Shown piece after piece: positions 3,801 through 48,923 of a DNA stretch of 64,000 bases. The stretch covers positions 51,488 through 115,487 of the forward strand of contig CALXLG010000003.1 in the NCBI GenBank assembly GCA_944389135.1, given 5' to 3'. Position numbers and translations under genes: made by a program. This DNA comes from an uncultured Alphaproteobacteria bacterium. Its GTDB lineage: Bacteria > Pseudomonadota > Alphaproteobacteria > Rs-D84. Numbering within the stretch: the first letter of the stretch is position 1; each line of letters begins with the position of its first letter. The notes beneath the pieces were generated by a model. The model had not been told where the DNA came from. It was given only the letters and a program-made list of their open reading frames with translations, and made no database searches.

Positions 3801-3894
3801 ATTAAAAACCTTTTTATTTATATGTTATATCACATAATAGACAAAAATGCATTAATGTCAATAAAAAAATCGCCTTGCGGCGACTTTCTTTATT

Positions 3895-4640
3895 CTGGGG
3901 CGGATGACCGGATTACTTCGTCACCTTGTAAAATTGTGCTATGCACAAGCGGCGTACTCTCGTCCGCCTTTTTACTGCGGTTCGAACGGCTTCTTCGCCG
4001 GTTCTCATCCTATCCTTTCGCAGAATAAAAAAAATCGCCTTGCGGCGACTTTCTTTATTCTGGGGCGGATGACCGGGACACCTGCGCCCAGCAATTTTAT
4101 TGCCGGGCTTCGTATTGTTCGCTTATCGCACCTAACGGTGCTGCTCACCACTCGTTCGCGTTCGACTTCCCTTCGGTCGTCTTACTGACTCGTATGCGAA
4201 CCTCGGTTCGAACCCGACCCGTCCAAAGTTATAAAAAATACCGGCATAACGCCGGCATTTTTTATAACTGGGGCGGATGACCGGATTACTTCGTCACCTT
4301 GTAAAATTGTGCTATGCACAAGCGGCGTACTCTCGTCCGCCTTTTTACTGCGGTTCGAACGGCTTCTTCGCCGGTTCTCATCCTATCCTTTCGCAGAATA
4401 AAAAAAATCGCCTTGCGGCGACTTTCTTTATTCTGGGGCGGATGACCGGGACACCTGCGCCCAGCAATTTTATTGCCGGGCTTCGTATTGTTCGCTTATC
4501 GCACCTAACGGTGCTGCTCACCACTCGTTCGCGTTCGACTTCCCTTCGGTCGTCTTACTGACTCGTATGCGAACCTCGGTTCGAACCCGACCCGTCCAAA
4601 GTTATAAAAAATACCGGCATAACGCCGGCATTTTTTATAA
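3895..4640 (-). repeat. Two apparently identical 373-bp tandem units abutting tRNA-His, each with two modules that end in a copy of the tRNA-His 3' end plus a terminator
   Basis: ctggggcggatgaccgg occurs at 3895, 4060, 4268, 4433 and, in the real gene, at 4641. The identical ORF-track translations at 3904-4188 and 4277-4561 confirm the 373-bp period. Confidence 0.9.
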
Positions 4641-4641
4641 C

Positions 4642-4719
4642 TGGGGCGGATGACCGGATTCGAACCGGCGACATTTGGTACCACAAACCAACGCTCTAAC
4701 CAGCTGAGCTACATCCGCC
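4642..4719 (-). tRNA. tRNA-His (anticodon GTG) with encoded G-1 and CCA
   Basis: The minus strand reads G-GCGGATG-TA-GCTC-AGCTGGTTA-GAGC-G-TTGGT-TTGTGGT-ACCAA-ATGTC-GCCGG-TTCGAAT-CCGGT-CATCCGC-C-CCA, a full cloverleaf with a G-1:C73 pair. Confidence 0.93.
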
Positions 4720-7976: not shown

Positions 7977-7977
7977 A

Positions 7978-15594: not shown

Positions 15595-15607
15595 AAAGCC
15601 ACTATTT

Positions 15608-16114: not shown

Positions 16115-16173
16115 TTTTACTCCTTATATATATACGATACGTTTTCTGATTGTTTGAATTGAATTTCCTTGTT

Positions 16174-16527
16174 ATGATTAACACTATGAATTCTTATAAC
16201 ATCGGTGTTTTTTCAGAACTAATTGCATGTGCTTATTTAATTCTACACGGGTTTCGTATAGTGAAAAGACGATATATTACGGGACGTCTTACTAATCGCG
16301 CAGAAATTGATATCATCGCAAAGAAAAAAGACCTTTTAATATTCGTCGAAGTTAAAAGACGTTCCAATACAACAGAAGCTTTTAATGCTATAACCAGTGC
16401 ACAGATAAAAAGACTTCGCACCGCAGCAGAAACTTATATTTTACAAAAAAATTGGCGTGGCAACGCCAGATTTGATGCGATAATCATAACGCCTAAAAAA
16501 CTTCAATGGATTAAGGGCGCTATATAA
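16174..16527 (+). CDS. yraN: YraN-family (UPF0102) endonuclease-like protein
   Basis: EIDIIAKKKDLLIFVEVKRR and ...ARFDAIII... form the PD-(D/E)xK-like pattern typical of YraN. Confidence 0.75.
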   Translation: MINTMNSYNIGVFSELIACAYLILHGFRIVKRRYITGRLTNRAEIDIIAKKKDLLIFVEVKRRSNTTEAFNAITSAQIKRLRTAAETYILQKNWRGNARFDAIIITPKKLQWIKGAI

Positions 16528-16588
16528 GCTTGCATATAATTTCGTTTTTTTATAATATATAAATACACCGATTAAAAAGGAGATATGT

Positions 16589-16738
16589 ATGAAAAAAATT
16601 ATGTTGGCTTTGTTTGCTGTTTTAACATTGGCTGCTTGCACAGGTTCATATAAGCAAGGTAATTGTGAATATGATTTCTTGTTACATAAAGATATTTCTA
16701 TTTCTAAAATTATCGGCAACGCAACAGGTGGTTGCTAA
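16589..16738 (+). CDS. Small lipoprotein (49 aa)
   Basis: This ORF is not in the track. It has the RBS aaaggag and a lipobox (LTLAAC), and a bidirectional terminator follows at 16744-16776. Confidence 0.5.
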   Translation: MKKIMLALFAVLTLAACTGSYKQGNCEYDFLLHKDISISKIIGNATGGC

Positions 16739-16772
16739 AGAACAAAAAAATCCCGCAAAATGCGGGATTTTT

Positions 16773-17033
16773 TTATTTTATTACCGCTGTCTTAATTAAT
16801 GATACATCGTCTTTGATACCGTCAATTTTTATCTGTAATTGCCCAATACCCGTTTCTAAAATTGTTGTCCTGTTTTCCAGCGTTGTAATTCTATGATCTG
16901 CACGTTCTAATTCCGCCAGTGATGAATCTTGACGTGCAACCCAATATATCATGCCAGCGACAAAGGCGATTAAGAACCAACTATCTCTTAAGAAGTCAAT
17001 AATTCCCATCGCTCCGTTTTGAGTTTGCATCAC
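16773..17033 (-). CDS. Membrane-anchored coiled-coil protein (phage cluster)
   Basis: 86 aa with one TM helix (WFLIAFVAGMIYWV) followed by a heptad-rich tail. It overlaps the upstream ORF by 4 nt. Confidence 0.5.
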   Translation of the reverse strand: MMQTQNGAMGIIDFLRDSWFLIAFVAGMIYWVARQDSSLAELERADHRITTLENRTTILETGIGQLQIKIDGIKDDVSLIKTAVIK

Positions 17034-17221
17034 TTTCCCCGCTGTATCAGAGTTTCAATCTGATGTACAAGAGCTCTTTGTGCTTCTAGACCACGCAATT
17101 CTGAATCACTGGCGTTGGGTCCCAGAACACGCTCTATTGTTATACGCCGCAAATGCGCCAATACTGCTGCACCAGCAGCAGTTGAAAATGTACGCGCATA
17201 ATTTTGTTCAACTTCTTTCAT
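17030..17221 (-). CDS. Small phage-associated protein
   Basis: 63 aa, located immediately downstream of the portal gene. The function was not recognised with certainty. Confidence 0.45.
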   Translation of the reverse strand: MKEVEQNYARTFSTAAGAAVLAHLRRITIERVLGPNASDSELRGLEAQRALVHQIETLIQRGK

Positions 17222-17236
17222 ATCTTTCCCCTTTGC

Positions 17237-18460
17237 TTACAAAACTGTTTCTTCTATGGCCATTTGCGCTATTGGTGCGATATACTTTAATTCCGCATCA
17301 CTATGCAAAGATATTTTTTCTATCACCCCACGACGAGATAAAATCTGTAACCCACGTTCACACAAAGGTCTGATAAATTCATGCAACAGTCTGCCGTATG
17401 TTGCACCAAGTATTCTTACCATATCTGCATTACGTGCCATGATTTCAGTTGCGGTCATTTCTTTTTCAGACAACAAACCAAGTCTATCCGCCAGCAACGC
17501 ATGACGAATACGTTCACGCAAGTCTTTCAATATAATTTGTGATACATCAAAGTCTGCGCCAGAAGATAACGGGGTTAAGCCCGAACTACCTACCGCCTTT
17601 GGTATTATTGCCCCAGGTGTTAAATTAATGTTTGATAAGTTTATAACACCGTCATCATCTGCCTGCCATATACCAGAAACAGCGATTGTTGCGTTTTTTA
17701 ATACTAGTTCTACAACTTTATTTGCGGTCTTGATATCTGGCAAAGCACGCAATACTGGGCCACGTCCGTATAGTTCACCACTGGCAACCGACCAACGAAA
17801 AACTAAGTAAGGGTTCGTTTCAAAAGTACCAGTAGAAATAATATTGTTTTCAATATTTCCACCGACATCCAACCACGCAGTAAAATCTTTACCAACCAAG
17901 CTTTGTACTAATTTCAAAGGCATTTCTGGGTCTTTCTTTATTGCATCACGAATATCTGCAGGTGGTGTCCAAGAAGGATATTTCTCAATAACTTCACGCG
18001 CGGGCATTGAAGTAGTATGAAATATCGCATTCGGTAAAATTGCAATATCTTTCATCGGAATTGCGGTAAAAGAAAATGCGGAATCTGCCCCGATTGGATT
18101 TTCTGACATAAACAGACACGCCGTCCCCAGAATTACTAAATCTAAATAACATTGGTGTATGGTTGTATAGAAATTAGAATCGTTAAGGTTTGCACGTAAT
18201 GCCGCAGTTGCAGAAACAGCATCAGGCGAATCCTCACTTTCAGGTATCAAAGATATCCATAAAGATTCTGGTGGCGTCAACAAAGAATACATTGATGCGG
18301 CTAAATTATCTACGGCATCTGCAGCGGTCGCATCAAACAAAGTTGCGGCATCATCGTCTGCCGTTGGCATGGTATAACGCAATGCACTGTCCCACCTATT
18401 TAACCAAGGTGCACGTAAATCCAGCGCACGACGGTACATTTGTTGTAAATTATTTTGCAT
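17237..18460 (-). CDS. Phage portal (head-to-tail connector)-like protein
   Basis: 407 aa, directly downstream of the terminase nuclease half. Its size, its position and the N-terminal MYRRALDLRAPWLNRWDSALRYTMP resemble podovirus connector proteins. Confidence 0.6.
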   Translation of the reverse strand: MQNNLQQMYRRALDLRAPWLNRWDSALRYTMPTADDDAATLFDATAADAVDNLAASMYSLLTPPESLWISLIPESEDSPDAVSATAALRANLNDSNFYTTIHQCYLDLVILGTACLFMSENPIGADSAFSFTAIPMKDIAILPNAIFHTTSMPAREVIEKYPSWTPPADIRDAIKKDPEMPLKLVQSLVGKDFTAWLDVGGNIENNIISTGTFETNPYLVFRWSVASGELYGRGPVLRALPDIKTANKVVELVLKNATIAVSGIWQADDDGVINLSNINLTPGAIIPKAVGSSGLTPLSSGADFDVSQIILKDLRERIRHALLADRLGLLSEKEMTATEIMARNADMVRILGATYGRLLHEFIRPLCERGLQILSRRGVIEKISLHSDAELKYIAPIAQMAIEETVL

Positions 18461-18481
18461 ATAGTTTGCTCCTTTATTAAG

Positions 18482-19330
18482 TTATAACTTAAAGTCTGTA
18501 TTCGCTGTAAACGGCCTTATTCCTTGTCCTAATGGCCGCACAGGAATTGGGGTTGTTGCGATGGCACCTGCAACTGCATCTAAACCATCGTCATGACCTG
18601 TTGCGCCAACAGGTGACCAACCCAACATTTCTGATAACAGTGGCGTTGATTGAACACGCCGATGCGCATATAATCGCCCCGTTGTCAAAATAGGTTCTAT
18701 TGTTTCTAAAATTCGGGTTTCTTTTTTTGTGTGATTTAATATTTTTTGAATCTGTACTTGAATACCCCGCTGCTGCGTGATTGTACGCATAATTTCTGGC
18801 AACGCATTACCCATACCATTTGTTTCTATACAAATACGATGTAATAAATGTTTTGATAAGAAATCTAAAACCATCTCGCATTGTCTTGCCAGGGGGTGTG
18901 CTTCTTCGTCTGATACCAACAAGTACTTAACATCATGTATGAAAAAACGTTTGTTTTTATCGTCACGATAAATTAATACGCAAACACTGCCGTCAGCTTT
19001 CTTGCGCCCAGAAGATGGGTCCCAATAGGCTGTAACCCCTGTTATTAAAGCGTCTCCTATTTTAGATGTACGAAAATCAAAATCATTGTCATATAAATGT
19101 AAAGAATCGGGGTCTAAGCGGGCTCTGTCTGGAGCAACGAAATTTAACATCATTTGTGCAGAAAAGTATCTATCGCCAACAGTTGCCCGTAATTCTTCTA
19201 TTTTTTCAATTGGAAAAAGTTCCGGCCAAGCTGGTGCACCGTCTGAATCAATAATTGGTATACGTAATTCTTCATAACCGATTAAAAAAGGCGTTGAAAA
19301 AGCAAAATTTTTATATACTATATCTGACAT
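18482..19330 (-). CDS. Terminase large subunit, C-terminal nuclease half only
   Basis: The product starts MSDIVYKNF. It contains AYWDPSSG, ETNGMGNALPE and GHDDGLDAVAGA, the RNase-H-like terminase nuclease acidic motifs. It has no ATPase motifs. Confidence 0.8.
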   Translation of the reverse strand: MSDIVYKNFAFSTPFLIGYEELRIPIIDSDGAPAWPELFPIEKIEELRATVGDRYFSAQMMLNFVAPDRARLDPDSLHLYDNDFDFRTSKIGDALITGVTAYWDPSSGRKKADGSVCVLIYRDDKNKRFFIHDVKYLLVSDEEAHPLARQCEMVLDFLSKHLLHRICIETNGMGNALPEIMRTITQQRGIQVQIQKILNHTKKETRILETIEPILTTGRLYAHRRVQSTPLLSEMLGWSPVGATGHDDGLDAVAGAIATTPIPVRPLGQGIRPFTANTDFKL

Positions 19331-20882
19331 GGACTTTACTCCCAAAACTTTGCCAACGAACCTAGAAGCAGAACAAGCTGTATTGGCTGCAGTTCTAATG
19401 AACAATCGTGCGTTGGAAAAAGTTTCTGAATTTCTGCGTCCTGAACACTTCTCTCACCCAGCACACCAAGAAATCTATAAGCTTGCTGAAAAGCAATTTT
19501 CTGCCGGAATACCATTTGATATAATTACCGCTAAAAATTACCTTGACCAGCAAGGTGTTTTAGAATCCGTTGGTGGCGTAGATTATTTAACTCAGTTATC
19601 CAGCGCAGGTGCAACAGTTGTTAACGTTGAACAGTATGGACGCATTGTTTATGATAACGCTTTACGTCGTGATTTAATAAATTTAGGTCAATCAATTACT
19701 GATGCTGCATTTATTGAAGATTTAGACAATCCTGTTTCTGCACAAATAGAAACAGCGGAACAAAAATTGTTTGAAATGGCGTCAGCAGGAGTTTCTGAAA
19801 AAGAGGTTTCTTCTATTGCCACAGCTCTGCAAAGCGCACTACAAGAAGCTGAAATTGCCTATAAAGCCGACGGAAAGTTATCTGGTCTTACGACTGGTTT
19901 AACTGCACTTGATAAATCTATTAGTGGTTTGCATCATTCTGACTTAATCATCATTGCAGGTCGTCCAGCAATGGGAAAAACAACACTGGCAATGAATATC
20001 GCTTTTAACGCAGCAAATGCTATTTTATACGGGCGCGCAAACGAAAAGTATAAAGGTGCAGTAGCGTTTTTCAGTCTTGAAATGTCCGCATCTCAGTTAG
20101 CTGCCCGTGTATTGTCTTCACAATCTAAGGTTCCTGCCTCTGCCATGCGTGAAGGAACTTTGACGGATGAAGATTTTCTAAAAATGTCGCAATACTCCGC
20201 AGCTATTGGCAGAGTGCCATTGTATATTGACGATACCCCAGGTATGTCTGTACCAATGATACGAACACGCGCCAGAAGATTGGCTAGGAAATGCGGTGGT
20301 ATCGCTCTTATAGTGATTGACTATTTACAGCTGATGACATCACCTGGTGGCAAGCGAAATGATAACCGCGTTCAAGAAATATCCGAAATTACACGTGGTT
20401 TAAAAATGCTGGCCAAAGAATTAGATGTACCTGTAATAGCCTTGTCCCAGTTATCTCGTAGTGTAGAATCACGCGATGACAAACGACCACAACTGGCCGA
20501 CCTTCGTGAATCTGGTTCTATTGAACAAGACGCAGATATTGTTATGTTTACATACCGCGAAGAATACTATCTTGAGAATCGCGACCCGTCACAAAGAATT
20601 TCTGGTAATGCAAACGAAAAAATCATTGAAAGCTATCAAAAACGTTTGGAACGTGCACGTGGCAAGGCCGATGTTATTATCGGTAAAAACCGACACGGCA
20701 GACCAGAAACTGTTCACTTGGCATTCTTTGGCGATTATAGCTTGTTTGATAACTTGGACGAAATGGAAGGACGCACTGCAGATGAATTCTCAGGTAATAC
20801 AATGCCAACCACCTCTTTACCAACAGATGAAATTCCAGAAGCAATTGACCCTGACGCAATTCCAGACGATATGCCTTTGTAA
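19329..20882 (+). CDS. dnaB: Replicative DNA helicase DnaB
   Basis: Contains NLEAEQAVLAAVLMNN, the Walker A motif GRPAMGKTTLA, IDYLQLM and an acidic C-tail. Its ATG overlaps the opposite-strand TerL-C ATG in the palindrome CATG. Confidence 0.9.
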   Translation: MDFTPKTLPTNLEAEQAVLAAVLMNNRALEKVSEFLRPEHFSHPAHQEIYKLAEKQFSAGIPFDIITAKNYLDQQGVLESVGGVDYLTQLSSAGATVVNVEQYGRIVYDNALRRDLINLGQSITDAAFIEDLDNPVSAQIETAEQKLFEMASAGVSEKEVSSIATALQSALQEAEIAYKADGKLSGLTTGLTALDKSISGLHHSDLIIIAGRPAMGKTTLAMNIAFNAANAILYGRANEKYKGAVAFFSLEMSASQLAARVLSSQSKVPASAMREGTLTDEDFLKMSQYSAAIGRVPLYIDDTPGMSVPMIRTRARRLARKCGGIALIVIDYLQLMTSPGGKRNDNRVQEISEITRGLKMLAKELDVPVIALSQLSRSVESRDDKRPQLADLRESGSIEQDADIVMFTYREEYYLENRDPSQRISGNANEKIIESYQKRLERARGKADVIIGKNRHGRPETVHLAFFGDYSLFDNLDEMEGRTADEFSGNTMPTTSLPTDEIPEAIDPDAIPDDMPL

Positions 20883-20949
20883 TATTTTGTGCTTGCTAAA
20901 CTCCTAAAAATTGACTAATATTTTGTCAAGTAATTCAAGGAGATTTGCG

Positions 20950-21954
20950 ATGGCCCAAGAAGAAATAATTTTTCCTAATAACATCAGAAACATTCGTCTT
21001 GCCAATGGTATGAAAATGACTGAATTGGCGCGTCAGGCAAATTTATCTTTGTCTGCTGTTTCAAAAATTGAAAAAGGCGTACGTCGCTTAAATCAAAAGC
21101 AACTATTAAACATCTGTAATATTTTGGGTTGCAAATTATCCGATATCTTTATAAAAGAATCAGATGCTGTTGCAACACAATGGCAAGATGAAATCAAACG
21201 CCGTATGAGCGACAATGAAAACAATGGCTTAAAAATATTTGGCAGTGGGTTACGCAAAATACGTCAGCAAGCAGGTAAAACTATCGCCCAGGCGGCAAAA
21301 GAAGCCGGTATGACATTGTCCGTTTATCATAAAATTGAGGTCGGACAACGTGAAATTTACCAAGATGAAATTGAACCTTTGGCAAAATCATTTGCTTATA
21401 CAACATCTGAATTATTTGATAAAGTTGCAAATCTTTATAAATCTGGCGAACTTAATAAGCAAATTAATAAGGTTAAAGAGCGCGTAAAATCTGTACTAGT
21501 TCCGGACAACCCTTTATCTGGTATTGATCACAGCAGTTTATACGGTGCAAAGCTTTATGATAGCGCCAGAAAAAAATTAGTACCTGTATTTGGCATGCCA
21601 GAAGGTAAAGCCATAGCATTTAAGAAATCTGATGAAACAATGATTGTTGCACCAATGATGCTAGAAGGCAAAAAAGGTATTTATGCTGTAATACCGAACT
21701 CAAAACGTACTAACGGTTTTATTCCTGAAAAAGCGTATGTTTTTGCTGATTCGTGTGCGACTGTAAATACTGGTGATTTAGCAATCTGTATTGATGCAGA
21801 TTTTGATACTTTGGGCACAGAAGATAAAGCAACAGCTCAAATTGTTAGCGTTCGCCAAGATTCTAAGGGTAAAACATACGGTCAAATTTCTTCTCCGGAA
21901 GAAAAAATTATCGGCAAAACATTACACAAAGTTGTAATGATTGTTATGGAATAA
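20950..21954 (+). CDS. Transcriptional regulator with two XRE-type HTH domains and a CI/LexA-like C-terminal domain (no obvious catalytic Ser-Lys)
   Basis: Two segments of the type IRNIRLANGMKMTELARQANLSLSAVSKIEKG and LRKIRQQAGKTIAQAAKEAGMTLSVYHKIEVG are present. The RBS is aaggag. Confidence 0.7.
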   Translation: MAQEEIIFPNNIRNIRLANGMKMTELARQANLSLSAVSKIEKGVRRLNQKQLLNICNILGCKLSDIFIKESDAVATQWQDEIKRRMSDNENNGLKIFGSGLRKIRQQAGKTIAQAAKEAGMTLSVYHKIEVGQREIYQDEIEPLAKSFAYTTSELFDKVANLYKSGELNKQINKVKERVKSVLVPDNPLSGIDHSSLYGAKLYDSARKKLVPVFGMPEGKAIAFKKSDETMIVAPMMLEGKKGIYAVIPNSKRTNGFIPEKAYVFADSCATVNTGDLAICIDADFDTLGTEDKATAQIVSVRQDSKGKTYGQISSPEEKIIGKTLHKVVMIVME

Positions 21955-21981
21955 TAATTCATATTGCCTAGGGGGGACAAC

Positions 21982-22647
21982 ATGAAAGCGAAAGCCAGTT
22001 TAATTGCACAAAAACTTCTTAACTTATATCGTCAAGAGCATGTAATTTTTGGTGGTTGGGCCGCTGTTAATGAAGTATTCGTAAATGAAGCAACCCCTGA
22101 GGTAATAACCGAATTGCGCGAATTGCCAACAGGAAAATTATTAGCAAAACATATAGAAAATCTTCGCAGTGGCAAAACACCTATGAATTCTATTGAACGC
22201 GACCTACTTCCTTATGGTGGTATGATGGCAGAAACAATTGCAACAATTCCGTTAACGACAGAAGAATGGGCGGAATTAGAACAAGGCATACATAATTTCA
22301 CCCCTGATGAAAACGGTCTAAACGAAATACAACAGTTAAATGTTATCAAAAAGTTTGGCGATCAGTGGTTAGTTGCAATACGTGCAGCAATATCGGCAAA
22401 ACCAGAATTATTGGAAAAATGGTCAGTCATTGCAAAAACATACCGCGCATACTATTTATGGAAAGTGGCAAGCGATATGATTAACCAACCACTTACGGAA
22501 CGCGCACGTGCTCAATTACAAGCAGATATGCCAGAATATGAAACATACCTGCCTATGTTTGGCGAAGCGGGCGTAGAATTGTTAGAAAAATTACGTTCTT
22601 TCATAACCACAATGAAATCGGACAAAGAAGAAAATATTTCTGACTAA
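21982..22647 (+). CDS. Hypothetical protein
   Basis: 221 aa with the RBS gggggg and no recognised motif. It is the last gene of the insert that splits the terminase. Confidence 0.5.
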   Translation: MKAKASLIAQKLLNLYRQEHVIFGGWAAVNEVFVNEATPEVITELRELPTGKLLAKHIENLRSGKTPMNSIERDLLPYGGMMAETIATIPLTTEEWAELEQGIHNFTPDENGLNEIQQLNVIKKFGDQWLVAIRAAISAKPELLEKWSVIAKTYRAYYLWKVASDMINQPLTERARAQLQADMPEYETYLPMFGEAGVELLEKLRSFITTMKSDKEENISD

Positions 22648-23261
22648 CTTTCTGATTTAGTTCTATAAATAGTATCCATCGTATGTGGTGTGCCAATATA
22701 TATCATTGTGCCGGTGGGTGAAAGAATAAAATCAAGCTCTCGTAATTTCTCTCGTAATGTTTCTCGCTTTTGTGCGGTGTTGCAAGTATTTGGGACTTCG
22801 ACGTCATCGCATATAATCAAGTCTGCTCGCATACCTGTAATATTTCCATGAACTCCTTGGCATATTACAGATGGTTCGCGAATTCCAACAGGTCGGTTAA
22901 CAGTTATGCGTCCTTGGGCCCATTCTTTTTTCGCGCTTGGAATTAGCTCTTTACACAGCGGATGATTTTCTAGAATATGCCGAATATGTGCAACCATTCT
23001 AGAAGCCAGCCCGCTTTCAGCAGACAAAATTAAAATTCTTGTTTCTGGATGCAAATATAAAACACATGCAGCGAATATTCCAACCACTGTAGACTTACCT
23101 GAATGTCGGAAAGACATTAACAAACCGCGCTTATTTTTGCCTGTCCATATTGAAACAAGAAAATCCATAATTTTTTTATGATGCGTGGGAGTTTTAAATC
23201 CAAGAATCTCGTTCCAATCATCTAAGAAATTATAGAACTCCGTAATCATCACGTGTTTCAT
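22644..23261 (-). CDS. Terminase large subunit, N-terminal ATPase half only
   Basis: It has Walker A (SFRHSGKST) and Walker B (DLIICDDVE) motifs and the coupling motif IGTP. It stops right after ...MDTIYRTKSES. Confidence 0.8.
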   Translation of the reverse strand: MKHVMITEFYNFLDDWNEILGFKTPTHHKKIMDFLVSIWTGKNKRGLLMSFRHSGKSTVVGIFAACVLYLHPETRILILSAESGLASRMVAHIRHILENHPLCKELIPSAKKEWAQGRITVNRPVGIREPSVICQGVHGNITGMRADLIICDDVEVPNTCNTAQKRETLREKLRELDFILSPTGTMIYIGTPHTMDTIYRTKSES

Positions 23262-23778
23262 TTGGCGCCTGCTCTGTTATGCTGCCATAATCATTTATTA
23301 AATTTGGCAAAGCATTATCTAATACCGATAATAAGTTATTATAAAGCCCTAAAACACTGCCACCAGATAATTTATCTTCTATTAGCTTGACCGTATAATC
23401 TATAAAAGATAATACTTTATCATGTACGTTTGCCCACTCTGAAACATTTATATCTATGTTTTGCAGGTCTTTAAAAGCCTCTAATAAAAAATTAAAATCG
23501 GCGTTTAGTGCTTCGGGGTCTATCTTTGCGGTTGGTTGATAATCAACAACACGCGACAAAGCAATTTGTCTAAAAATATCCACTTTTGTGTTTTCTGCTG
23601 GTGGATTTATAAAAATAACTGTTCCACCAGAAAAATCTTCGTTCGCAACAATGGAACATTCGCCGTTCAAACAAAGCTTATCATCTAGCGCAACACGAAT
23701 GTCTGCTTCTTGAAAAAAAGGAAACGCAAATAAGAACTCTGACGTTACCCCATCAGCAATATAAGAGTTTCTGTACAT
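23230..23778 (-). CDS. T7-type tail-fibre N-terminal (tail-attachment) domain protein
   Basis: The N-terminal YIADGVTSEFLFAFPFFQEADIRVALDD matches the pattern of the podovirus fibre N-terminal domain. At 182 aa it has no long shaft. Confidence 0.6.
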   Translation of the reverse strand: MYRNSYIADGVTSEFLFAFPFFQEADIRVALDDKLCLNGECSIVANEDFSGGTVIFINPPAENTKVDIFRQIALSRVVDYQPTAKIDPEALNADFNFLLEAFKDLQNIDINVSEWANVHDKVLSFIDYTVKLIEDKLSGGSVLGLYNNLLSVLDNALPNLINDYGSITEQAPNETRDDYGVL

Positions 23779-23791
23779 TCCTGCCCCCTTA

Positions 23792-24139
23792 TTAACCGAC
23801 TAAATCATCAAATTTATCCAACAAAGACTGTAATAAGTTTGGTTTTTGTACTTTTATCTTCTTTAACTTTTCAGTTTTAGTACGCTTTTTTTCTTCGTAT
23901 GGTTCGGCCGCTTCTTCTTTTAATCGCTTTAGGACTGCCCCTTCGGTCATGCCTTTACCTGACATACCAGACGCACCATATTTAGCACGTTGCGTGGCTA
24001 ATGTTTTTTTTACTAAATTTGTTTTTTCTTTTTCATCAGCTGCCATATCAGACAGTATCTTCTGTCTTTCTGTTTCGGCTTCTTTTTTTGAATCTTTATA
24101 ATTTAAAATATCTGTTACATCTGAAACTATCTGCCCCAT
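23792..24139 (-). CDS. Lys/Glu-rich small virion-associated-like protein
   Basis: 115 aa, highly charged, located between the tubular-B-like and fibre-N genes. Confidence 0.4.
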   Translation of the reverse strand: MGQIVSDVTDILNYKDSKKEAETERQKILSDMAADEKEKTNLVKKTLATQRAKYGASGMSGKGMTEGAVLKRLKEEAAEPYEEKKRTKTEKLKKIKVQKPNLLQSLLDKFDDLVG

Positions 24140-24155
24140 TTTTTTCTCCCTATGT

Positions 24156-25871
24156 TTAAACTAGGTAATATCCATACATTGTTATCGATAAAACCGTTGT
24201 TGGTAATTGTTCACTGCTTGAAATTGTCCAAGGTGCCGTTATGCAATTCCTTTGGCACCCAAGTAAATTTATTGAAACGTCACCACTATAACCATTGGTA
24301 TCATCTGCGAATATTTCGTTTGGAAAATCTGCTCTGGCCCCGTTTATAAATAAAGACTTTGTATTAAGAACACGTGCAGAAATTTTACGAACTTTTATTT
24401 TATTTGCATTATGACCGGACGCTCTTAAAGGTAAAGCTGAGGCGGTATAAGAAAAGCCATACTTATCCGCATCAATTAACACATCGTCTGAAAATTTTTC
24501 TAGCGAATATTTGCCTTCTCGTAAAACCACGACATATGTATCACCGCTACTTACCGCAACAGATTGAAAATTACCTTGAGTTTTATAAGTTGCCCACGCA
24601 GAAATACCAAGTGCGGAATTTTGATTCAAAACCGCCATATCACCAGATTCCATTACAACAAAAAGCTGTCTTGTTTTATCGTTGTATGCTAAATCTATAG
24701 GATTCTGCATTAAATGCTTTGACAATCCACATAAATCTGTCGCATTATAATTTTCACCAAGCTGGTCTAAACTTAATTCACGAATATCTTTTTTACTGCC
24801 AGATATAAAAACTGTCGCACCTTCAATTTTTTGTGGTGGCAAGTAACGTGTTGCTACACTGCCTACAGATGTGTGCTGCTTTATGTCCACAACAGACGGA
24901 GTTAAGGGCTTACTTGAAATTGCCCATTCACCAGCAGATGTAAGTATTTGTAAATTATCGCTACTTACAACAGTACATATCTGTTGACGTTGTTGTGATA
25001 GTAAAGTTATAAAAATTGCTTCATCATCTAAGCCGGTTCCAACATTAAAATTATTATGCCGACCGACCTGCGATAGCCAGACACCACTTGGCCAAGAACG
25101 TGAACCACCAAAAACTAATCTGTCTTGATGAAATGTGATACTGCAAGGCCAGCCTCTGCGTTTACTAAATGCCGCTTCGCGCCAATCAGAAACGGGTTCT
25201 GCCGGTACAGTATACGTACCATTCACATAAGCTTTTACTACTTTCGCACTTATATATTCAGAAATAAGCCATTGCTTACCTAGCAATAAAAAACGACCGT
25301 CTTTATCGTCAGGTGTCCAATAATCAACGTTTGTCGTAAACGTTGCAAAATTATTTCCAGAATCACTTGCAGTAACGGTTATTTTAATGTCTTCTGTATC
25401 ATCAAAACGCATAAACGGTATATTTACAGTCATATCCGAATCGTTACGCGCAAAATCAAACTTTGATAACTCAAAATCATTCCCAACTTTTTTCAGTGTA
25501 TAAGGCTGAAAATCTGGATGCACAAAAATCATCGTACCAAAGCGTTGCGCATATTGAAGTTTTGCTAAATCGTTAAAGCTCCATGGACTTATCAAGTCTT
25601 TTATTCTTTGCCCGTCAAAGTAAATCAATATATGCTGATTAATTAATACCAATAAATAATTTTCTGTTTCACTTACTGAAAAATCTATTAATCTTGCATT
25701 ATCAGACAGGCTTGCAACACTTTTTAGTCCACGTCTGCGAGATAAACCACCGCCTGCAAGAACGTCCATATTTTCTAACTTTGAAAGTCCATTGGTATTA
25801 TCACGTGCAAAAAATTCAGGTGCAACTTCGCCATCTGCAAAAGAATTCTGTGTTTTTATAAAATCTCCCAT
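24156..25871 (-). CDS. Tail tubular protein B (nozzle)-like protein
   Basis: 571 aa. The call rests on its position after the adaptor-like gene and its large beta-rich sequence, i.e. mainly on synteny with T7-like order. Confidence 0.5.
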   Translation of the reverse strand: MGDFIKTQNSFADGEVAPEFFARDNTNGLSKLENMDVLAGGGLSRRRGLKSVASLSDNARLIDFSVSETENYLLVLINQHILIYFDGQRIKDLISPWSFNDLAKLQYAQRFGTMIFVHPDFQPYTLKKVGNDFELSKFDFARNDSDMTVNIPFMRFDDTEDIKITVTASDSGNNFATFTTNVDYWTPDDKDGRFLLLGKQWLISEYISAKVVKAYVNGTYTVPAEPVSDWREAAFSKRRGWPCSITFHQDRLVFGGSRSWPSGVWLSQVGRHNNFNVGTGLDDEAIFITLLSQQRQQICTVVSSDNLQILTSAGEWAISSKPLTPSVVDIKQHTSVGSVATRYLPPQKIEGATVFISGSKKDIRELSLDQLGENYNATDLCGLSKHLMQNPIDLAYNDKTRQLFVVMESGDMAVLNQNSALGISAWATYKTQGNFQSVAVSSGDTYVVVLREGKYSLEKFSDDVLIDADKYGFSYTASALPLRASGHNANKIKVRKISARVLNTKSLFINGARADFPNEIFADDTNGYSGDVSINLLGCQRNCITAPWTISSSEQLPTTVLSITMYGYYLV

Positions 25872-25887
25872 ACCGACTACCCCCAGA

Positions 25888-26406
25888 TTAAAAACGCGCG
25901 TTGATTAAAGAAAAACTTTCTATGTCTTGATTGATTGACGTTGTACTGTCTATAAATTTCGCAGATTGCATTTCTGTTTCATATAAAGCGGCAAGCATTC
26001 TAAATACACTTTGCTCGCCAATAAGTGGTATACAAAATTCCATTGCTAACTTAGTCGCAGCCAGTGAAACAAAATAACTAGGGAAGTTTTCAACAGGAAC
26101 CTTTGTTATCGCCAAAATAGAAATCTTTTCTTCTGCAGAAATAATTTTATTTCCGATAATTTCCCCATTGCATTTCAAAACACGCAAACAATCAATTGGT
26201 ATTAAAAAGTCTCCGTCCGATGTTTTTGTAAGCTCATATTTTTTACATGCAAAGCGCCACGGATGCGAAGACAGCAAGGTATCTATTACTGGGTCAAACA
26301 AAGTCCTACTAAGTTGCGCAGCCGGTGTATCATCTACAAGAGACTGAATAGATTTCTCGCCCAGCTTTAATAACGCCATAGAACATAAATCTATTTTCGT
26401 AATCAT
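25888..26406 (-). CDS. Tail tubular protein A / adaptor-like protein
   Basis: The N-terminus IDLCSMALLKLGEKSIQSLVDDTPAAQLSRTLFDPVIDTLLSSHPWRFA follows the N-terminal pattern I associate with podovirus gp11-like adaptors. Confidence 0.55.
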   Translation of the reverse strand: MITKIDLCSMALLKLGEKSIQSLVDDTPAAQLSRTLFDPVIDTLLSSHPWRFACKKYELTKTSDGDFLIPIDCLRVLKCNGEIIGNKIISAEEKISILAITKVPVENFPSYFVSLAATKLAMEFCIPLIGEQSVFRMLAALYETEMQSAKFIDSTTSINQDIESFSLINARF

Positions 26407-26462
26407 ATTATGCCCCTTATTGCTAAAAATAAAGGCGACATAAAAATGTCGCCTTGGTTTTA

Positions 26463-26690
26463 TTATGCTAAATCAGCAACACTAACATTGCCAGAAACAG
26501 CAACTTTTTTAATAGAAGTATTATCAGACGCATTTATGATTACGATATCACCTGTATTCATTAACGTCTTTACACCATCAAAATAACCAGCCGTTGTAAT
26601 CGCTGTTAACGTTTCGTTTGCAGAATAATGCCACAAAGTAAAACCATTGGCATATGCAATAACAGATAAATTTTTATTCTGAAAAGCCAT
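26463..26690 (-). CDS. Small phage structural-cluster protein
   Basis: 75 aa, directly downstream of the capsid gene, which makes a decoration or cement role possible. Confidence 0.4.
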   Translation of the reverse strand: MAFQNKNLSVIAYANGFTLWHYSANETLTAITTAGYFDGVKTLMNTGDIVIINASDNTSIKKVAVSGNVSVADLA

Positions 26691-26723
26691 TATATAATCC
26701 TTTTATTTCGGTTTTAATTTGTT

Positions 26724-27545
26724 TTATTGATTGTCCAAGCATTTAACACGTACAATGCCATCATTATCAATCAATACTGCACCTTGTGACATGCTGTTGC
26801 TGATAAAGTGCGCAGCACGTTCACCATGCCAAGAAATATCTGTTTTAACTTCTTGACCGCATGCATGACCAACGCTGGTTGCGTGATAAATAAAGCAATC
26901 ACGGTTATCTTCTGTTAAAGGCAAGCCGTTATGCAAAACCCAAGTAATACCTAACCATTTCTTAGAAGCACCACCTGATACCAACGGCAAATCATTACCT
27001 ACGTAATCTGCAGAAACAAATTCGTCCATTGACAACAGTTCATTCCATTGATGAACACCAACAACAGCAAATCTACGACCGTCATCAGGAACATCTTTTT
27101 CATTTAATGCCTCTACTGCAGATAAAATCAAATCTTTTGTAAGACCAGTGCTATAATCACCAACAGAGTTTGTTGCTTTGCTCATTGCAGAGATAATTAA
27201 TTCATCAGTTTTACGCCCAAGCGCATATGCACCAGCAGATGCAACTACACGACGTTCATCAACGTTTGTCTTTAATTCATCCAATGCATCAACCCAATCA
27301 CCTGCATAATAATCTTGCAATATACATTCAACAGGTTCATGGTTTAAGTTCATAACAGGAACTATCCCATGACGAGATTTTGTACTGGCCGTACCACGAC
27401 CAACTTTTTGGAAAGTTGTTGAAGCACCAACAACACCGGACTTACTACGAACAGTTGCACGTAGTTTTGTCCCCATTTGCTGATACGCCAAATGTACATC
27501 GGCTTCGAATTGTTTCACGAAGACCTGATCTATGGAAACAGACAT
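26724..27545 (-). CDS. Major capsid protein-like
   Basis: 273 aa. The N-terminus VFVKQFEADVHLAYQQMGTKLRATVR is a pattern I recall from podovirus capsid families. The gene follows the scaffold gene. Confidence 0.6.
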   Translation of the reverse strand: MSVSIDQVFVKQFEADVHLAYQQMGTKLRATVRSKSGVVGASTTFQKVGRGTASTKSRHGIVPVMNLNHEPVECILQDYYAGDWVDALDELKTNVDERRVVASAGAYALGRKTDELIISAMSKATNSVGDYSTGLTKDLILSAVEALNEKDVPDDGRRFAVVGVHQWNELLSMDEFVSADYVGNDLPLVSGGASKKWLGITWVLHNGLPLTEDNRDCFIYHATSVGHACGQEVKTDISWHGERAAHFISNSMSQGAVLIDNDGIVRVKCLDNQ

Positions 27546-27788
27546 ATATTATTCCTTTTTATAATCAAGTGAATTTAATGCGTATAAATAACGCGGCTAA
27601 AATTTTGTATCATGGTTATGCGCTTTAACGCGCCAATATACAAAATACCAAGGTCCTAAAAAGGATTGTCTTGAGAAATTCTTAGTCATACTAAACAAAA
27701 ACATATGACTAAAAATTTCAAAAAATAAAACCGCATAAAAATGCGGCTGTATAGAAAAAGTAAATCCCCGCAATTGCGAGGATTTATA

Positions 27789-28082
27789 TTATTTTTTCTT
27801 TGCACATGCTTTCTTAGCAACTGGTTTTTTTACAGCTACTTTTTTTGCACATACTTTTTTTGCTGCTGGTTTCGCTGCTACTTTTTTTACAGCTACTTTC
27901 TTTGCAACTGGTTTTTTTGCAACAACTTTTTTTGCAGCTGGTTTTGCAGCTACTTTCTTTGCAGCTGGCTTTGCAGCTGGTTTCTTTGCAGCTGGTTTAG
28001 CTGCTGCTTTTTTTGCAACCGGTTTTGCAGCTGGTTTTGCAGCTGGTTTCTTTGCGGCTGGCTTCAAGAATGAAAATGCCAT
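27789..28082 (-). CDS. Lys/Ala-rich histone-H1-like (AKKPAAKPAAK repeat) basic protein
   Basis: The ATG at 28082 follows the RBS aggaga. About 85 aa consist of (A/V)AKKPAAKP-type repeats. The gene has its own flanking terminators at 27741-27788. Confidence 0.7.
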   Translation of the reverse strand: MAFSFLKPAAKKPAAKPAAKPVAKKAAAKPAAKKPAAKPAAKKVAAKPAAKKVVAKKPVAKKVAVKKVAAKPAAKKVCAKKVAVKKPVAKKACAKKK

Positions 28083-28185
28083 TCTTCTCTCCTTTTTATT
28101 TTTTGGATAGAACAAATTTGTTTTGTTCTTACTTTATATTTTATATGAAACAAAAATATTAGTAAAGAAGAAAGTGCATTTTTTT

Positions 28186-28842
28186 CTATGAATATAATTT
28201 TTTAAAACCATTTTCTATCTTTCTAACATACTCTGGATCTTGGTCGCGCCAATATTTTGGATCTTGCATCATGCGTCTTAAATCATTATCTGTTAAATTT
28301 TTTGATGCGAAATCATCTGTACGAACACTTGGTTCCATTGATTGCATCATTTTGTAGACACCTTGAATTCCCTGGGCTGTAGAACACAACTCTTCAAAAG
28401 CATTTGCAGGTAAATATTTTTCACCAAATGATTTTATTGCATGCAATGCTTCATTCATTTTTTCTTCACCACCAAAAAAATTTTTTAATTCCATAATTTC
28501 TTTATTTTCATTTTGCACATTAAATAAATCTGAAATTATTGGTGATAAATAATCTTCTGCAAGTTTATAAATTTTTTCAACCTGCGAAGATGTTAAACCA
28601 ATTTCAAAAAATTTATTACGCAAATCTTCATCATCAAACATCGGATTTGCAGGATATGCATCTGCGCTTTCTGGGACACCAATTGCGCGATAAAATTTTG
28701 TGCGTGTTTCTTTGTCTGCATCATCAGCAGGTACAGAAATCATCGTTCCAATCTTTTTTTCTAATTCAGAATAAGATTTTAATAATGCATTTGTATTTAA
28801 AGTTCCGTCTTCATTTAGAAATTTTTCTGGAATTTTTTCCAT
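28186..28842 (-). CDS. Phage scaffolding (capsid assembly) protein-like
   Basis: The product starts MEKIPEKFLNEDGTLNTNALLKSYSELEKKIG, a typical scaffold N-terminus, and is acidic and helical. The longer track ORF has an implausible hydrophobic extension. Confidence 0.55.
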   Translation of the reverse strand: MEKIPEKFLNEDGTLNTNALLKSYSELEKKIGTMISVPADDADKETRTKFYRAIGVPESADAYPANPMFDDEDLRNKFFEIGLTSSQVEKIYKLAEDYLSPIISDLFNVQNENKEIMELKNFFGGEEKMNEALHAIKSFGEKYLPANAFEELCSTAQGIQGVYKMMQSMEPSVRTDDFASKNLTDNDLRRMMQDPKYWRDQDPEYVRKIENGFKKLYS

Positions 28843-29032
28843 TTCGTCTTCCTTTTGTTTCGCTTGATTTACGCAGAAAATAAATTCCGCCCAAAGTAAA
28901 GATTGCTTGCAACATTGTAAATATATCTGTGTCACCAACCAGATATGCACCAATAGCAGATAATATACCAACACCTGATATTATATAAGTTCTATGACCT
29001 GCTAAAAAACCACCTTTGATAATTTTATTCAT
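28811..29032 (-). CDS. Holin-like small membrane protein
   Basis: 73 aa with two TM segments and a basic C-tail. It lies immediately downstream of the cell-wall hydrolase gene. Confidence 0.5.
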   Translation of the reverse strand: MNKIIKGGFLAGHRTYIISGVGILSAIGAYLVGDTDIFTMLQAIFTLGGIYFLRKSSETKGRRNGKNSRKISK

Positions 29033-43087: not shown

Positions 43088-43261
43088 GCAATTTCGCACC
43101 GCATGGTGCGTTTTTTATTGACGGGGCGAAGAACCCGTGCGGGTTCGTGTGCGGAGTTGGCGAAAGCGCGCCCCGGCGCGGTTAAGCCTTACCGAGCCGA
43201 AAGGGGCCCGCCATGCCACCAAGGCATGGTGGGAATTTACAACCCCGTCAATCCCGCCAGC
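43071..43261 (+). repeat. 19-bp direct repeat of the tRNA-Asp 3' end flanking a terminator plus a GC-rich ~125-nt module
   Basis: ccccgtcaatcccgccagc occurs at 43071-43089 and 43243-43261. The module starts TTGACGGGG, which is complementary to the CCCCGTCAA of the repeat, and contains GCGGGTTCG, identical to the 5' half of the T-arm. Confidence 0.85.
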
Positions 43262-43396
43262 TATTTAACGTCACTGAAAAATCAGTGACGTTTTTTATTT
43301 AAGAATATTTCCCAAAGAAAACTTTTATAATTATTGATATAATTTATATCGCTGGTATACTTAATTAGCATAAGGAATAAACAAAAGGGGGAAACT

Positions 43397-48136: not shown

Positions 48137-48256
48137 ATGAAAAAAACATTCTGGGGTATCTTATTAATAATTACTTTGGCCGTATCTGCATGCGGTGTAA
48201 AATCCGAATTGGCGCGACCAGATGAATCTTTTCCACGTAATTACCCAGTATATTAA
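48137..48256 (+). CDS. Small lipoprotein, LptM/YifL-like (39 aa)
   Basis: This ORF is not in the track. MKKTFWGILLIITLAVSACGVKSELARPDE follows the lipobox-plus-CG.K..L..P pattern. Confidence 0.55.
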   Translation: MKKTFWGILLIITLAVSACGVKSELARPDESFPRNYPVY

Positions 48257-48269
48257 AAGACTGAAATTT

Positions 48270-48354
<85 letters not shown>

Positions 48355-48634
48355 TTGTTTAAACTTTATTGCTGGCTCACATCCAGCGCGTCTACCAATT
48401 TGTTCGCTTTTCGCAACTGTCGTTGCTGCTCACCACTCGTTAGCGCTCGGCTTCGCTTTCGCTTGTCTTGCTTACTCGTATGCGCCATATGCCCTTGTTT
48501 AAACTTTATTGCTGGCTCATATCCAGCGCGTCTACCAATTTGTTCGCTTTTCGCAACTGTCGTTGCTGCTCACCACTCGTTAGCGCTCGGCTTCGCTTTC
48601 GCTTGCCTTGCTTACTCGTATGCGCCATATGCCT
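48355..48634 (-). repeat. Two 140-bp tandem units upstream of tRNA-Leu, each holding nt 1-12 and 13-33 of the tRNA separated by an 81-nt GC-rich core
   Basis: gccatatgccc ends at 48354, 48494 and 48633. atccagcgcgtctaccaattt starts at 48322, 48381 and 48521. The cores lie at 48402-48482 and 48542-48622. Confidence 0.9.
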
Positions 48635-48743
48635 AATAAAAAGCGCATTTAACATAAGCGAACTTAATCTTATTATAAAATTTACTTGATTTCCAGTAAA
48701 ATTTAACATAAAATTTGTCGCAGAATAATAAAAGGTTAATAAA

Positions 48744-48923
48744 ATGGCATCTAAAAAAGGCAGTAAAGAAGTTGTAAAGCTTGAAAACAAAGAAACTGGC
48801 TACTTTTATACAACTACAAAAAACACAAAGTCAGAAAATACAGCTGGCAAAATGAAATTCCGCAAATATGACCCAAAATTACGTAAACACGTGGTCATGA
48901 CAGAAGCGAAAATGCCTCACTAA
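48744..48923 (+). CDS. rpmG: 50S ribosomal protein L33
   Basis: This ORF is not in the track (59 aa). ...YFYTTTKN...KMKFRKYDPKLRKHVVMTEAK follows the L33 pattern. Confidence 0.85.
   Translation: MASKKGSKEVVKLENKETGYFYTTTKNTKSENTAGKMKFRKYDPKLRKHVVMTEAKMPH

Follow-up and report, generated by a model that had tools for sequence, protein, structure and literature searches.

The 5' leader of the tRNA-Leu(UAG) gene in the window (i.e., the whole 64,000-nucleotide stretch of DNA analyzed here) carries two copies of a conserved, structured unit of ~80 nt, hereafter the core, which interrupts partial copies of the tRNA. We also recovered the core from the tRNA-His(GUG) locus of the same window and, in ~80 further copies, from public genomes and metagenomes of Candidatus Enterousia and its relatives. 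We hypothesize, with a confidence that stands at about even, that the core is a new, lineage-specific structured RNA that is co-transcribed with tRNAs, released by processing, selected by the host, rarely spread to new loci, and varied in unit number by crossover.

The leader of the intact tRNA-Leu(UAG) gene is a two-unit tandem array, with the following features:

48270..48354, minus strand: intact tRNA-Leu(UAG) gene, anticodon tag in the DNA (ARAGORN; Rfam tRNA, 57.5 bits)
48355..48494, minus strand: Leu unit 1, tRNA-proximal, 140 nt (direct repeats D1-D3, sequence)
48355-48380, minus strand: hairpin and spacer part of Leu unit 1
48371..48387, minus strand: hairpin GCUGG-AUGUGAG-CCAGC (DNA GCTGG-ATGTGAG-CCAGC; sequence)
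48381-48401, minus strand: tRNA nt 13-33 part of Leu unit 1
48402..48482, minus strand: core copy of Leu unit 1, 81 nt, helices P1-P4 (covariance model R1, 99.4 bits)
48483-48494, minus strand: tRNA nt 1-12 part of Leu unit 1
48495..48634, minus strand: Leu unit 2, promoter-proximal, 140 nt, with the anatomy of unit 1 (repeat analysis)
48542..48622, minus strand: core copy of Leu unit 2, 81 nt (covariance model R1, 103.9 bits)
48672..48700, minus strand: promoter-like site TTTACT-17-TATAAT upstream of the Leu array (promoter search)

Read on the tRNA strand, each unit consists of tRNA nt 1-12, the 81-nt core, tRNA nt 13-33, and a hairpin followed by an AT-rich spacer, an anatomy that had been proposed in a preliminary description of this DNA and that the repeats and the sequence confirmed. 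The two units are 99% identical. The nt 1-12 part reads GGGCATATGGCG / GGGCAUAUGGCG (AGGCATATGGCG in the distal copy), and the nt 13-33 part, an exact 21-nt repeat, reads AAATTGGTAGACGCGCTGGAT / AAAUUGGUAGACGCGCUGGAU. The hairpin stands in place of the anticodon arm of the partial tRNA-Leu copy, and its counterpart in strain L006 is GCUGGAU-GUA-AUCCAGC, followed by a U-run. The rpmG gene beside the array also occurs on many metagenome contigs, which share the gene order of this locus, MCRA - tRNA-Leu - rpmG - parC.

The preliminary description had located the same ~80-nt core in the tRNA-His array at 4117-4196, where we found it as well, together with another copy at 4490-4569. The features of this locus are:

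3895-4020 and 4268-4393: two copies of His module B
4060..4226, minus strand: His module A, copy 2 (part of an exact 373-nt tandem duplication)
4117..4196, minus strand: core copy of His module A copy 2, 80 nt (covariance model R1, 105 bits)
4433..4599, minus strand: His module A, copy 1 (sequence)
4490..4569, minus strand: core copy of His module A copy 1, 80 nt (covariance model R1, 105 bits)
4642..4718, minus strand: intact tRNA-His(GUG) gene (ARAGORN, Rfam)

Module A is built of a T-arm-like 5' part ending in GGUUCG, the core, AAUACGAAG, a covarying hairpin, and the 3' 17 nt of tRNA-His, which include CCA; its copy 1 lies between terminator hairpins at 4600-4642 and 4394-4435. An 18-mer common to the Leu and His cores, AACGAGTGGTGAGCAGCA, occurs four times in the window (0.05 expected by chance). 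The covariance-model scan with filters off gave four core copies in the whole 64-kb window (two Leu and two His), and neither nhmmer nor this filter-free scan detected any further core above noise there.

When 185,579 species genomes were searched for CATACGAGT-N30-42-AACGAGTGGTGAGC, 52 loci were recovered, almost all of them in metagenome-assembled genomes of Candidatus Enterousia (order Rs-D84 by taxonomy lookup) or other gut Alphaproteobacteria sampled from human, chicken, sheep, deer, and horse. JGI metagenomes added 17 true core copies by the covariance model, all at tRNA-Ser, and one IMG/VR contig (L011) also carries a copy; this contig is host DNA with a prophage, including a large serine recombinase, 3' of tRNA-Ser. 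The core occupies three kinds of loci. At tRNA-Ser(UGA), in ~40 species, it lies 36-47 nt upstream of the gene, in 1-3 or more tandem units. At tRNA-Leu(UAG), represented by the window, L006, and L008/L027, it is also upstream, at a distance of 47 nt. At tRNA-His(GUG), with 13 loci, it follows the gene by ~70 nt and is separated from it by a terminator hairpin. The tRNA-Ser(UGA) leader is probably its main and ancestral home. Of the 64 nhmmer copies, all whose contig reaches a tRNA gene fall at these three loci on the strand of that tRNA, and the 17 metagenome copies agree. Thus, the claims that the core always lies on the tRNA strand and is embedded in tRNA-derived repeats at unrelated tRNA loci (Ser, Leu, and His) both hold. 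Among the 52 genome hits, each genome has only one to three core loci, all flanking tRNA-Ser, tRNA-His, or tRNA-Leu, a distribution that argues against the dispersed-repeat family that the preliminary description had named among the findings that would refute a structured unit.

An alignment of 53 distinct cores supported four helices. P1 (CAUACG with CGAGUG) never varies, so it is without covariation support; P2 has six pairs, five of them with double changes; both pairs of P3 covary; and four of the five P4 pairs covary. P1, P2, and P3 together form one long irregular hairpin, closed by P1, and P4 is a separate 5-bp hairpin located 11-12 nt from the 3' end of the core. The variants of P4 are GCAAC/GUUGC, GCACC/GGUGC, GUACC/GGUAC, GUGCC/GGCAC, GUAAC/GUUAC, and GCAGC/GCUGC. 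The difference between the Leu and His hairpins that had first suggested a structure (GCAAC-GACA-GTTGC vs GCACC-GTTA-GGTGC) is therefore real and represents one instance of covariation across the 53 cores. The further copies leave this hairpin intact, with P4 paired in 99.6% of cells. Over all pairs, 98.7% of cells were paired, compared to 87.4% in shuffled controls, and none of 500 shuffles reached the observed value; when the partners were slid, only 15-39% were paired. Double changes occurred at 11 of 18 pairs, in 117 cells, and the top mutual-information pairs were exactly the proposed pairs. Together, these covariation data support the discrete structured unit of ~80 nt that the preliminary description had put forward.

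The variable pairs included 12 cells of the G-U type vs one of the A-C type, and the U-G pair of P1 was found in 53 of 53 copies, so the fold belongs to the tRNA sense strand, either as RNA or as that DNA strand. Both general marks of a structured non-coding RNA, namely compensatory changes and a strand-specific G-U signal, were thus found, and selection acting on the core as single-stranded DNA would give equal covariation and some strand bias. Single-sequence folding performed no better than shuffled sequences for either the unit (z = -0.2) or the core (z = -0.5), and the support for the fold is comparative rather than thermodynamic.

Conservation was compared among 24 species that have lgt - array - tRNA-Ser synteny. 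The mean pairwise identity of the core was 83.4%, between that of tRNA-Ser (94.5%) and that of the lgt 3' end adjoining the array (70.7% for DNA and 74.4% for protein). Thirty-two of ~80 columns are invariant, including CAUACGAGU, AACGAGUGGUGAGC, and the 3' CGAAC, and, in contrast, the spacers drift, as does the D-arm in partial tRNA copies. One locus (L062) has a perfect core and has lost the tRNA fragment 5' of it, and three others (L023, L043, and L063) keep only part of this fragment. The conserved object is the core and not the pseudo-tRNA. Judged from these identities and the synteny, the core is under purifying selection and mostly vertically inherited.

Almost every full-length core interrupts the loop of a tRNA arm in a partial tRNA copy, between G and AA. 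The junction lies in the anticodon loop of a 5' partial tRNA-Ser(UGA) copy at Ser (GGUCUUG^core^AAAACCGU), in the D-loop of a 5' partial tRNA-Leu(UAG) copy at Leu (AUGGCG^core^AAAUUGG), and in a T-loop-like part of a 3' partial tRNA-His copy at His (GGUUCG^core^AAUAC). The GAACCGGAGGUUCG^ flank recurs at a diverged core (L081), whose module is enclosed by two tRNA-Glu-like 3' ends. The core boundaries are sharp and conserved (G^CAUACG and CGAAC^AA), and the left flanks agree only in their final G (CUUG, UUCG, and GGCG). Target-site duplications are absent, as neither G nor AA is duplicated, and terminal inverted repeats are likewise missing, as had been noted before: the core ends CATACGAGT... 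and ...AAGCGAAC are not complementary, nor is there an overall palindrome. The recurrence of an exact G^AA junction across four loop contexts suggests a process of site-specific insertion.

The number of units varies among close relatives, and the comparison between strains that the preliminary description had in mind gave zero, one, or two Leu core units across strains and species. The window has two, L006 (by sequence, of the same species) and L008 have one each, and L002/L007 have none. Ser arrays have 1-3 units, with a single unit in many species. A sister group (L001, L003-L005, L009, and L010) has one to four or more 67-nt mini-units at Leu, which begin at the same point, after tRNA nt 12, and retain only a P1-like hairpin, ACUACG-AAGCRAAG-CGWAGU; in the L003 mini-unit, its A.A mismatch has become A-U. 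Decayed cores are found at the promoter-proximal ends of Ser arrays (e.g., L017 714-780, 28 bits). The decayed core of L017 interrupts the UUG^AAA loop of the hairpin downstream of a core, and an apparently similar nested insertion was seen in L049. The copy-number variation is accounted for by tandem amplification through unequal crossover between the tRNA-derived repeats.

Upstream of tRNA-Leu, the tRNA strand gave a single sigma-70-type promoter-like match, TTTACT-17-TATAAT, and the DNA from this site to the tRNA showed no terminator-like site. The Leu leader also contains GUUCGCUU (complement of 48654-48661), which is complementary to the core 3' tail AAGCGAAC and forms inverted repeat I1 with it; the region of the promoter-like site and I1 is conserved in L006 and L008. 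Ser arrays lie between the tRNA and a TTGAC.../TAnAAT promoter-like site just after lgt. Because the arrays at both loci lie between a promoter-like site and the tRNA, the Leu and Ser units are predicted to be part of the tRNA precursor. The window tRNA-His(GUG) and tRNA-Ala form one predicted transcript from a promoter at 4852-4824, and no promoter was found at the His modules, which follow strong terminator hairpins. Their transcription would need read-through, which is a weakness of the RNA reading. Within the 64-kb window, the core has no complementary target.

We then compared the core with known families. The Rfam 15 scan of the window at gathering thresholds returned five tRNAs only, and scans at E-values up to 10 over 48200-48750 and 3850-4660, with ribozyme models among those searched, gave nothing credible on the core. 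The sole Rfam overlap with the core was snoRNA sR16 at the His copies, at chance level (14.8 bits vs a gathering threshold of 70; E = 4.5). STnc430 scored 41 bits on His module B plus terminator (gathering threshold of 47), a match driven by the tRNA 3' end and the terminator rather than by the core. Likenesses to SRP RNA, T-box, hammerhead, K-turn, and 5S loop E were judged by eye and are without model support. A phage or plasmid origin was set aside: in blastn searches of phage and plasmid collections, the unit matched nothing but 21 nt of tRNA-Leu. Protein coding was also rejected: the Leu copy is open in one frame, in which the His copy has a stop, and core lengths of 68, 80, 81, 82, and 84 nt break any reading frame. 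RPE-like or MITE-like dispersed repeats do not fit four copies in 64 kb that are all at two tRNA loci and have no terminal inverted repeat, palindrome, or duplication. The arrays also do not resemble those of type III toxin-antitoxin systems (ToxI-like), as they are followed by the tRNA and then housekeeping genes, no toxin ORF is present, and there is often a single unit. A retro-copy origin, in which unit boundaries would equal transcript ends, is left as speculation, since the promoter-proximal ends of Ser arrays are truncated cores rather than starts of transcripts. Pfam scans of ~57 larger window ORFs detected no reverse transcriptase, transposase, integrase, or HUH protein, and the 10 ORFs of L011 included no reverse transcriptase, transposase, or HUH protein, their only recombinase being the prophage serine recombinase.

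Several described systems share some of these features. Rickettsia palindromic elements (RPEs) are, like the core, short (~100 nt), structured, of non-coding size, and found in reduced-genome Alphaproteobacteria, and they have reportedly been seen inside a stable-RNA gene. However, RPEs are palindromic overall and occur as tens of dispersed copies per genome, mostly in-frame in protein genes, whereas the core is restricted to 1-3 tRNA-flanking loci, is never in an ORF, has no palindrome, and shows genus-wide syntenic conservation. Intervening sequences (IVS) of rRNA genes are also structured inserts of ~100 nt, sporadic in occurrence, in a hairpin loop of a stable RNA gene. IVS interrupt functional bacterial 23S/16S rRNA genes and are excised by RNase III; in contrast, the tRNA copies that hold the core are always truncated and non-functional, with an intact gene alongside, and the core has invariant single-stranded blocks. 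At integrase att repeats, as at the core loci, partial tRNA copies adjoin an intact tRNA (the 3' 17-24 nt are repeated at His and Asp), but the core loci differ in their 5' copies upstream of the gene (Ser and Leu), the insert in a loop, modules of 140-210 nt, and covariation. IS200/IS605-derived PATEs and REPs moved by HUH Y1 enzymes resemble the core in having no terminal inverted repeat or target duplication, in strand specificity, in a hairpin ~10 nt from one end, and in insertion beside a short specific sequence in single-stranded, hairpin-forming DNA. The core departs from them in its very low copy number and in having a simple hairpin (P4) at the 3' end only, with no match at the far end, and no TnpA/RAYT transposase gene was seen among the window ORFs. 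YrlA Y RNA (PMC4201824) and engineered tRNA scaffolds are, like the core, structured RNAs inside tRNA-derived helices; the core, however, has no Rfam YrlA match and no rsr gene nearby, and the Ser and Leu units have no 3' half for a tRNA-like fold. The searched literature contained no description of the element. Its RNA family is new. In kind, as a structured non-coding RNA within tRNA operons, the core varies on known themes, and for the loop-embedded, tRNA-derived cassette architecture we found no described precedent in the literature.

Under our preferred reading, the host-selected RNA, the promoter of the tRNA itself would drive sense-strand transcription of the core, and RNase P, RNase E, and 3' trimming nucleases, in cutting out the tRNA, would free the core from the precursor. 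The freed core may be a small stable RNA, most likely protein-binding, that the host keeps through purifying selection, and unequal crossover between tRNA-derived direct repeats would alter the number of units. Moves to new tRNA loci would be rare, with perhaps three or four events in the clade. Since only arrangements with an intact single-copy tRNA survive, each move would leave a truncated, interrupted tRNA copy beside the intact one, an arrangement that could arise via unequal exchange or via a single crossover with a small circle carrying the interrupted fragment. Genomes of <1 Mb with a coding density of ~90% seldom retain useless DNA. Those of Enterousia are 0.75-1.0 Mb with ~90% coding density (PMC12306168). 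Given this genome size, conservation above that of coding DNA, compensatory pairing, and invariant loops, we consider the core a strong candidate for a functional RNA of gut Enterousia, a group of widespread, uncultured bacteria of the human and animal gut.

The site-specific insertion process indicated by the junctions is absent from this explanation and counts against it. It is central to a different account, rather unlikely in our view yet a serious one, in which the core is a selfish, non-autonomous mobile element acting at the ssDNA or RNA level, specific for G^AA in hairpin loops of tRNA genes and moved by an enzyme encoded elsewhere; its structure would then be conserved because the mobilizing host- or element-encoded enzyme requires it. 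Such an element would account for exact boundaries in four contexts (GGUCUUG^AAAA, GGCG^AAAU, GGUUCG^AAU, and the tRNA-Glu-like module) and for the nested insertions in L017 (UUG^AAA loop) and, apparently, L049, and the strict strand, the hairpin 11-12 nt from the 3' end, and the missing terminal inverted repeats and target duplications are as in HUH-type elements. Similarly, inserts at the T-loop G^A of His module B, the Asp module, and L065 (described below) suggest a process defined by its target. However, a selfish element does not explain the low copy number, with one to three loci per genome and tRNA flanks only, nor the tRNA-Ser synteny in 24 or more species, which indicates vertical descent, nor conservation above that of neighboring coding DNA, which rare transposition cannot maintain. 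Moreover, the left end lacks a second hairpin like those of IS200/IS605 ends, and neither the scanned ORFs of the window nor the surroundings of the loci examined yielded a transposase, reverse transcriptase, or HUH gene.

The remaining explanations are each less likely than the selfish element. The location of the core in tRNA-Ser and tRNA-Leu leaders would suit a cis-acting leader or trailer element through which the neighboring tRNA is regulated in its transcription or maturation, for instance if the partial copy competes with the genuine half for pairing and the core senses a ligand or protein. Consistent with this, the anticodon-stem 3' strand of the unit has three possible, mutually exclusive pairings (the anticodon stem, the downstream hairpin, and the 7-bp CGGUCUU/AAGACCG), and the hairpin after the core in L006 has a terminator-like U-run. 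We nevertheless regard cis control as improbable: opposite contexts, a 5' leader and a 3' trailer behind a terminator, are hard to reconcile with one mechanism, the L062 core is kept without its 5' tRNA fragment, and the three loci have unrelated hairpins behind the core, most of them without a U-run. A view of the arrays as degenerate traces of phage or island integration (att sites) at these tRNA genes, with the core as a leftover end of the integrative element, is very improbable, even though downstream 17-24 nt copies of tRNA 3' ends with a terminator are a classic att signature (His and Asp here; Ser, Ala, and Glu elsewhere) and the L011 prophage with its large serine recombinase lies just 3' of tRNA-Ser. 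This signature fails at Ser and Leu, which duplicate the tRNA 5' end upstream of the gene; no crossover segment is duplicated around the core, which occupies a loop of the partial copy; the core ends are not inverted repeats, unlike the two halves of a serine-integrase attP; and in scars, 32 unvarying columns and compensatory pairs would not persist across ~50 species with genomes of <1 Mb. Least probable of all is an intron-like or self-cleaving RNA excised at both boundaries, although the boundaries G^CAUACG and CGAAC^AA are sharp and conserved, the anticodon loop of the tRNA copy is the bacterial tRNA intron site, and the size is in the small-ribozyme range. Group I, group II, and ribozyme Rfam models score nothing at E = 10, and 80 nt compares with a ribozyme core of at least 200 nt in group I/II tRNA introns. 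The boundaries (G^C and C^A) also do not fit the ends of group I (U^...G) or group II introns (GUGYG...AY) or the archaeal bulge-helix-bulge rules, and thus the earlier view that this is not a group I intron stands. Splicing would also yield nothing useful, because the interrupted tRNA copies are without the other tRNA half.

Structured inserts at the T-loop G^A of partial tRNA copies form a pattern that is wider than the core. Behind the window tRNA-Asp come, in order, a terminator, GCGGGUUCG^, ~94 nt of GC-rich insert, CCCCGUCAAUCCCGCCAG, and another terminator, and this module has a fold with z = -3.5. In L065, a distant relative of the core (26.8 bits) occupies the T-loop of a 3' partial tRNA-Ser copy (GGGUUCG^...^AAUCCCUC). 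Downstream copies of tRNA 3' ends, which comprise 17-24 nt at the window His and Asp genes, are also found at tRNA-Ser (11 loci), Ala, and Glu. We tentatively suggest, as a speculative and unlikely reading, that in Enterousia-type bacteria a new kind of process opens the loops of tRNA arms at G^A(A) and inserts cargo coding for structured RNA, with the core as the best-preserved cargo or as the agent. The loops may be opened as single-stranded DNA of the gene, or as precursor RNA that is then copied to DNA; tRNA-derived cassettes, in which 5' or 3' partial tRNA sequence surrounds a structured insert, beside Ser, Leu, His, Asp, and Glu tRNA genes would be its products, and the core could be a very small mobile RNA or ribozyme-like element. 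These loci raise the question of how loop inserts arise, and whether duplicated tRNA genes serve as cradles or scaffolds for new RNAs. In His module B, the order is the tRNA-His acceptor 5' strand, GAACCGG, GCCGUUCG^, an insert of ~70 nt, and ^AAUCCGGUCAUCCGCCCCA, and between species, covariation was seen in two of its hairpins. An acceptor/T-stem-like closing helix ending in CCA can form in module A as well as in module B. As a minor observation, the His modules of one further locus (L061) are recombined at their common GAACCGG.

Partial tRNA copies with a structured insert are not confined to the modules that carry the core, the ~80-nt structured element ending in CGAAC. Module B of the array behind tRNA-His(GUG) lacks the core and is conserved and structured between species, and behind tRNA-Asp lies a third module, built on the same plan as the His modules.

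Modules without a core match in the window
3895-4020 and 4268-4393, minus strand: His module B
43088-43300, plus strand: module behind tRNA-Asp
43139-43147, plus strand: GCGGGTTCG of the tRNA-Asp module
43148-43242, plus strand: GC-rich insert of the tRNA-Asp module, ~94 nt
43243-43259, plus strand: copy of the last 17 nt of tRNA-Asp, inside a 24-nt direct repeat

Module B looks like an acceptor/T-stem minihelix of tRNA-His with a CCA end, and its insert of ~70 nt is placed at the T-loop position UUCG^AA. Cross-species comparison revealed covariation in two of its hairpins, one with the variants GGCG/CGCC, GGCA/UGCC and GGUG/CACC, and the other with UUGUGC/GCACAA and GUCUGC/GCAGA; recombinants between modules A and B were present in a related locus (L061). 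We also considered the enterobacterial sRNA STnc430, for which Rfam gave a match of 41 bits (E = 6e-5), below the gathering score of 47, at 4227-4389 on the minus strand, spanning module B and the terminator after it. Because this alignment is carried by the tRNA 3'-end-like CCGGUCAUCCG and the terminator, the likeness is probably one of context only, and we rejected this identity. The tRNA-Asp module runs from a terminator through GCGGGTTCG, the GC-rich insert and the tRNA-Asp 3' end copy to a second terminator, and it folds with z = -3.5; the covariance model built on the core gives no match on it. Two diverged relatives of the core were found by this model in other loci, at L065 3860-3980 (26.8 bits) and L081 3620-3880 (27.3 bits). 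In L065 the genuine tRNA-Ser has a 3' partial copy of itself downstream, whose T-loop holds the relative; in L081 the relative belongs to a module with a terminator and a tRNA-Glu-like 3' end at its borders, each present twice.

At tRNA-Leu, a sister species group (L001, L003-L005, L009 and L010) carries 67-nt tandem mini-units, one to four or more and varying in number from sample to sample, at the same point as the core units, after tRNA-Leu nt 12. They retain only a P1-like hairpin (ACUACG-AAGCRAAG-CGWAGU) and a copy of the native leader. In the window, GUUCGCUU of the leader (48654-48661), which is conserved in two tRNA-Leu loci with one core unit (L006 and L008), is complementary to the core 3' tails. 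Judging from sequence, the immediate 5' flanks at His (GUUCG) and Ser (CUUG) could pair with the same CGAAC core end.

Features of the tRNA-Leu leader
~2700-2900 of the 6180-nt loci: mini-units
48402-48409 and 48542-48549: core 3' tails AAGCGAAC

Phage-type genes were encountered in two places. In L011, an IMG/VR contig of host DNA, tRNA-Ser(UGA) has a core upstream, and the region immediately 3' of it (7445-9076) contains phage-type genes (ParB-methylase, DUF2924) and a gene for a large serine recombinase with Resolvase and Recombinase domains, which indicates that a prophage inserted adjoining this core-bearing tRNA. Separately, at ~15600-29000 of the window, this reduced genome holds a cluster of phage-like structural genes, with dnaB and a gene for an HTH regulator interspersed among them. 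Neither an integrase nor a reverse transcriptase was seen in this cluster, which encodes a Mtd_N tail-fibre-like protein, a T7-type portal, a terminase large-subunit fragment, a capsid protein and a T7-type scaffold protein, and is a prophage remnant or gene-transfer-agent-like locus.

Directly downstream of the His array sits a pair of tandem paralogous ORFs.

1707-2714, minus strand: 335-aa paralogue
2808-3800, minus strand: 330-aa paralogue

Neither has a Pfam match. Their N-termini are identical, and both repeat LESL(x)GAPKEV units that, by their sequence, look like leucine-rich repeats.
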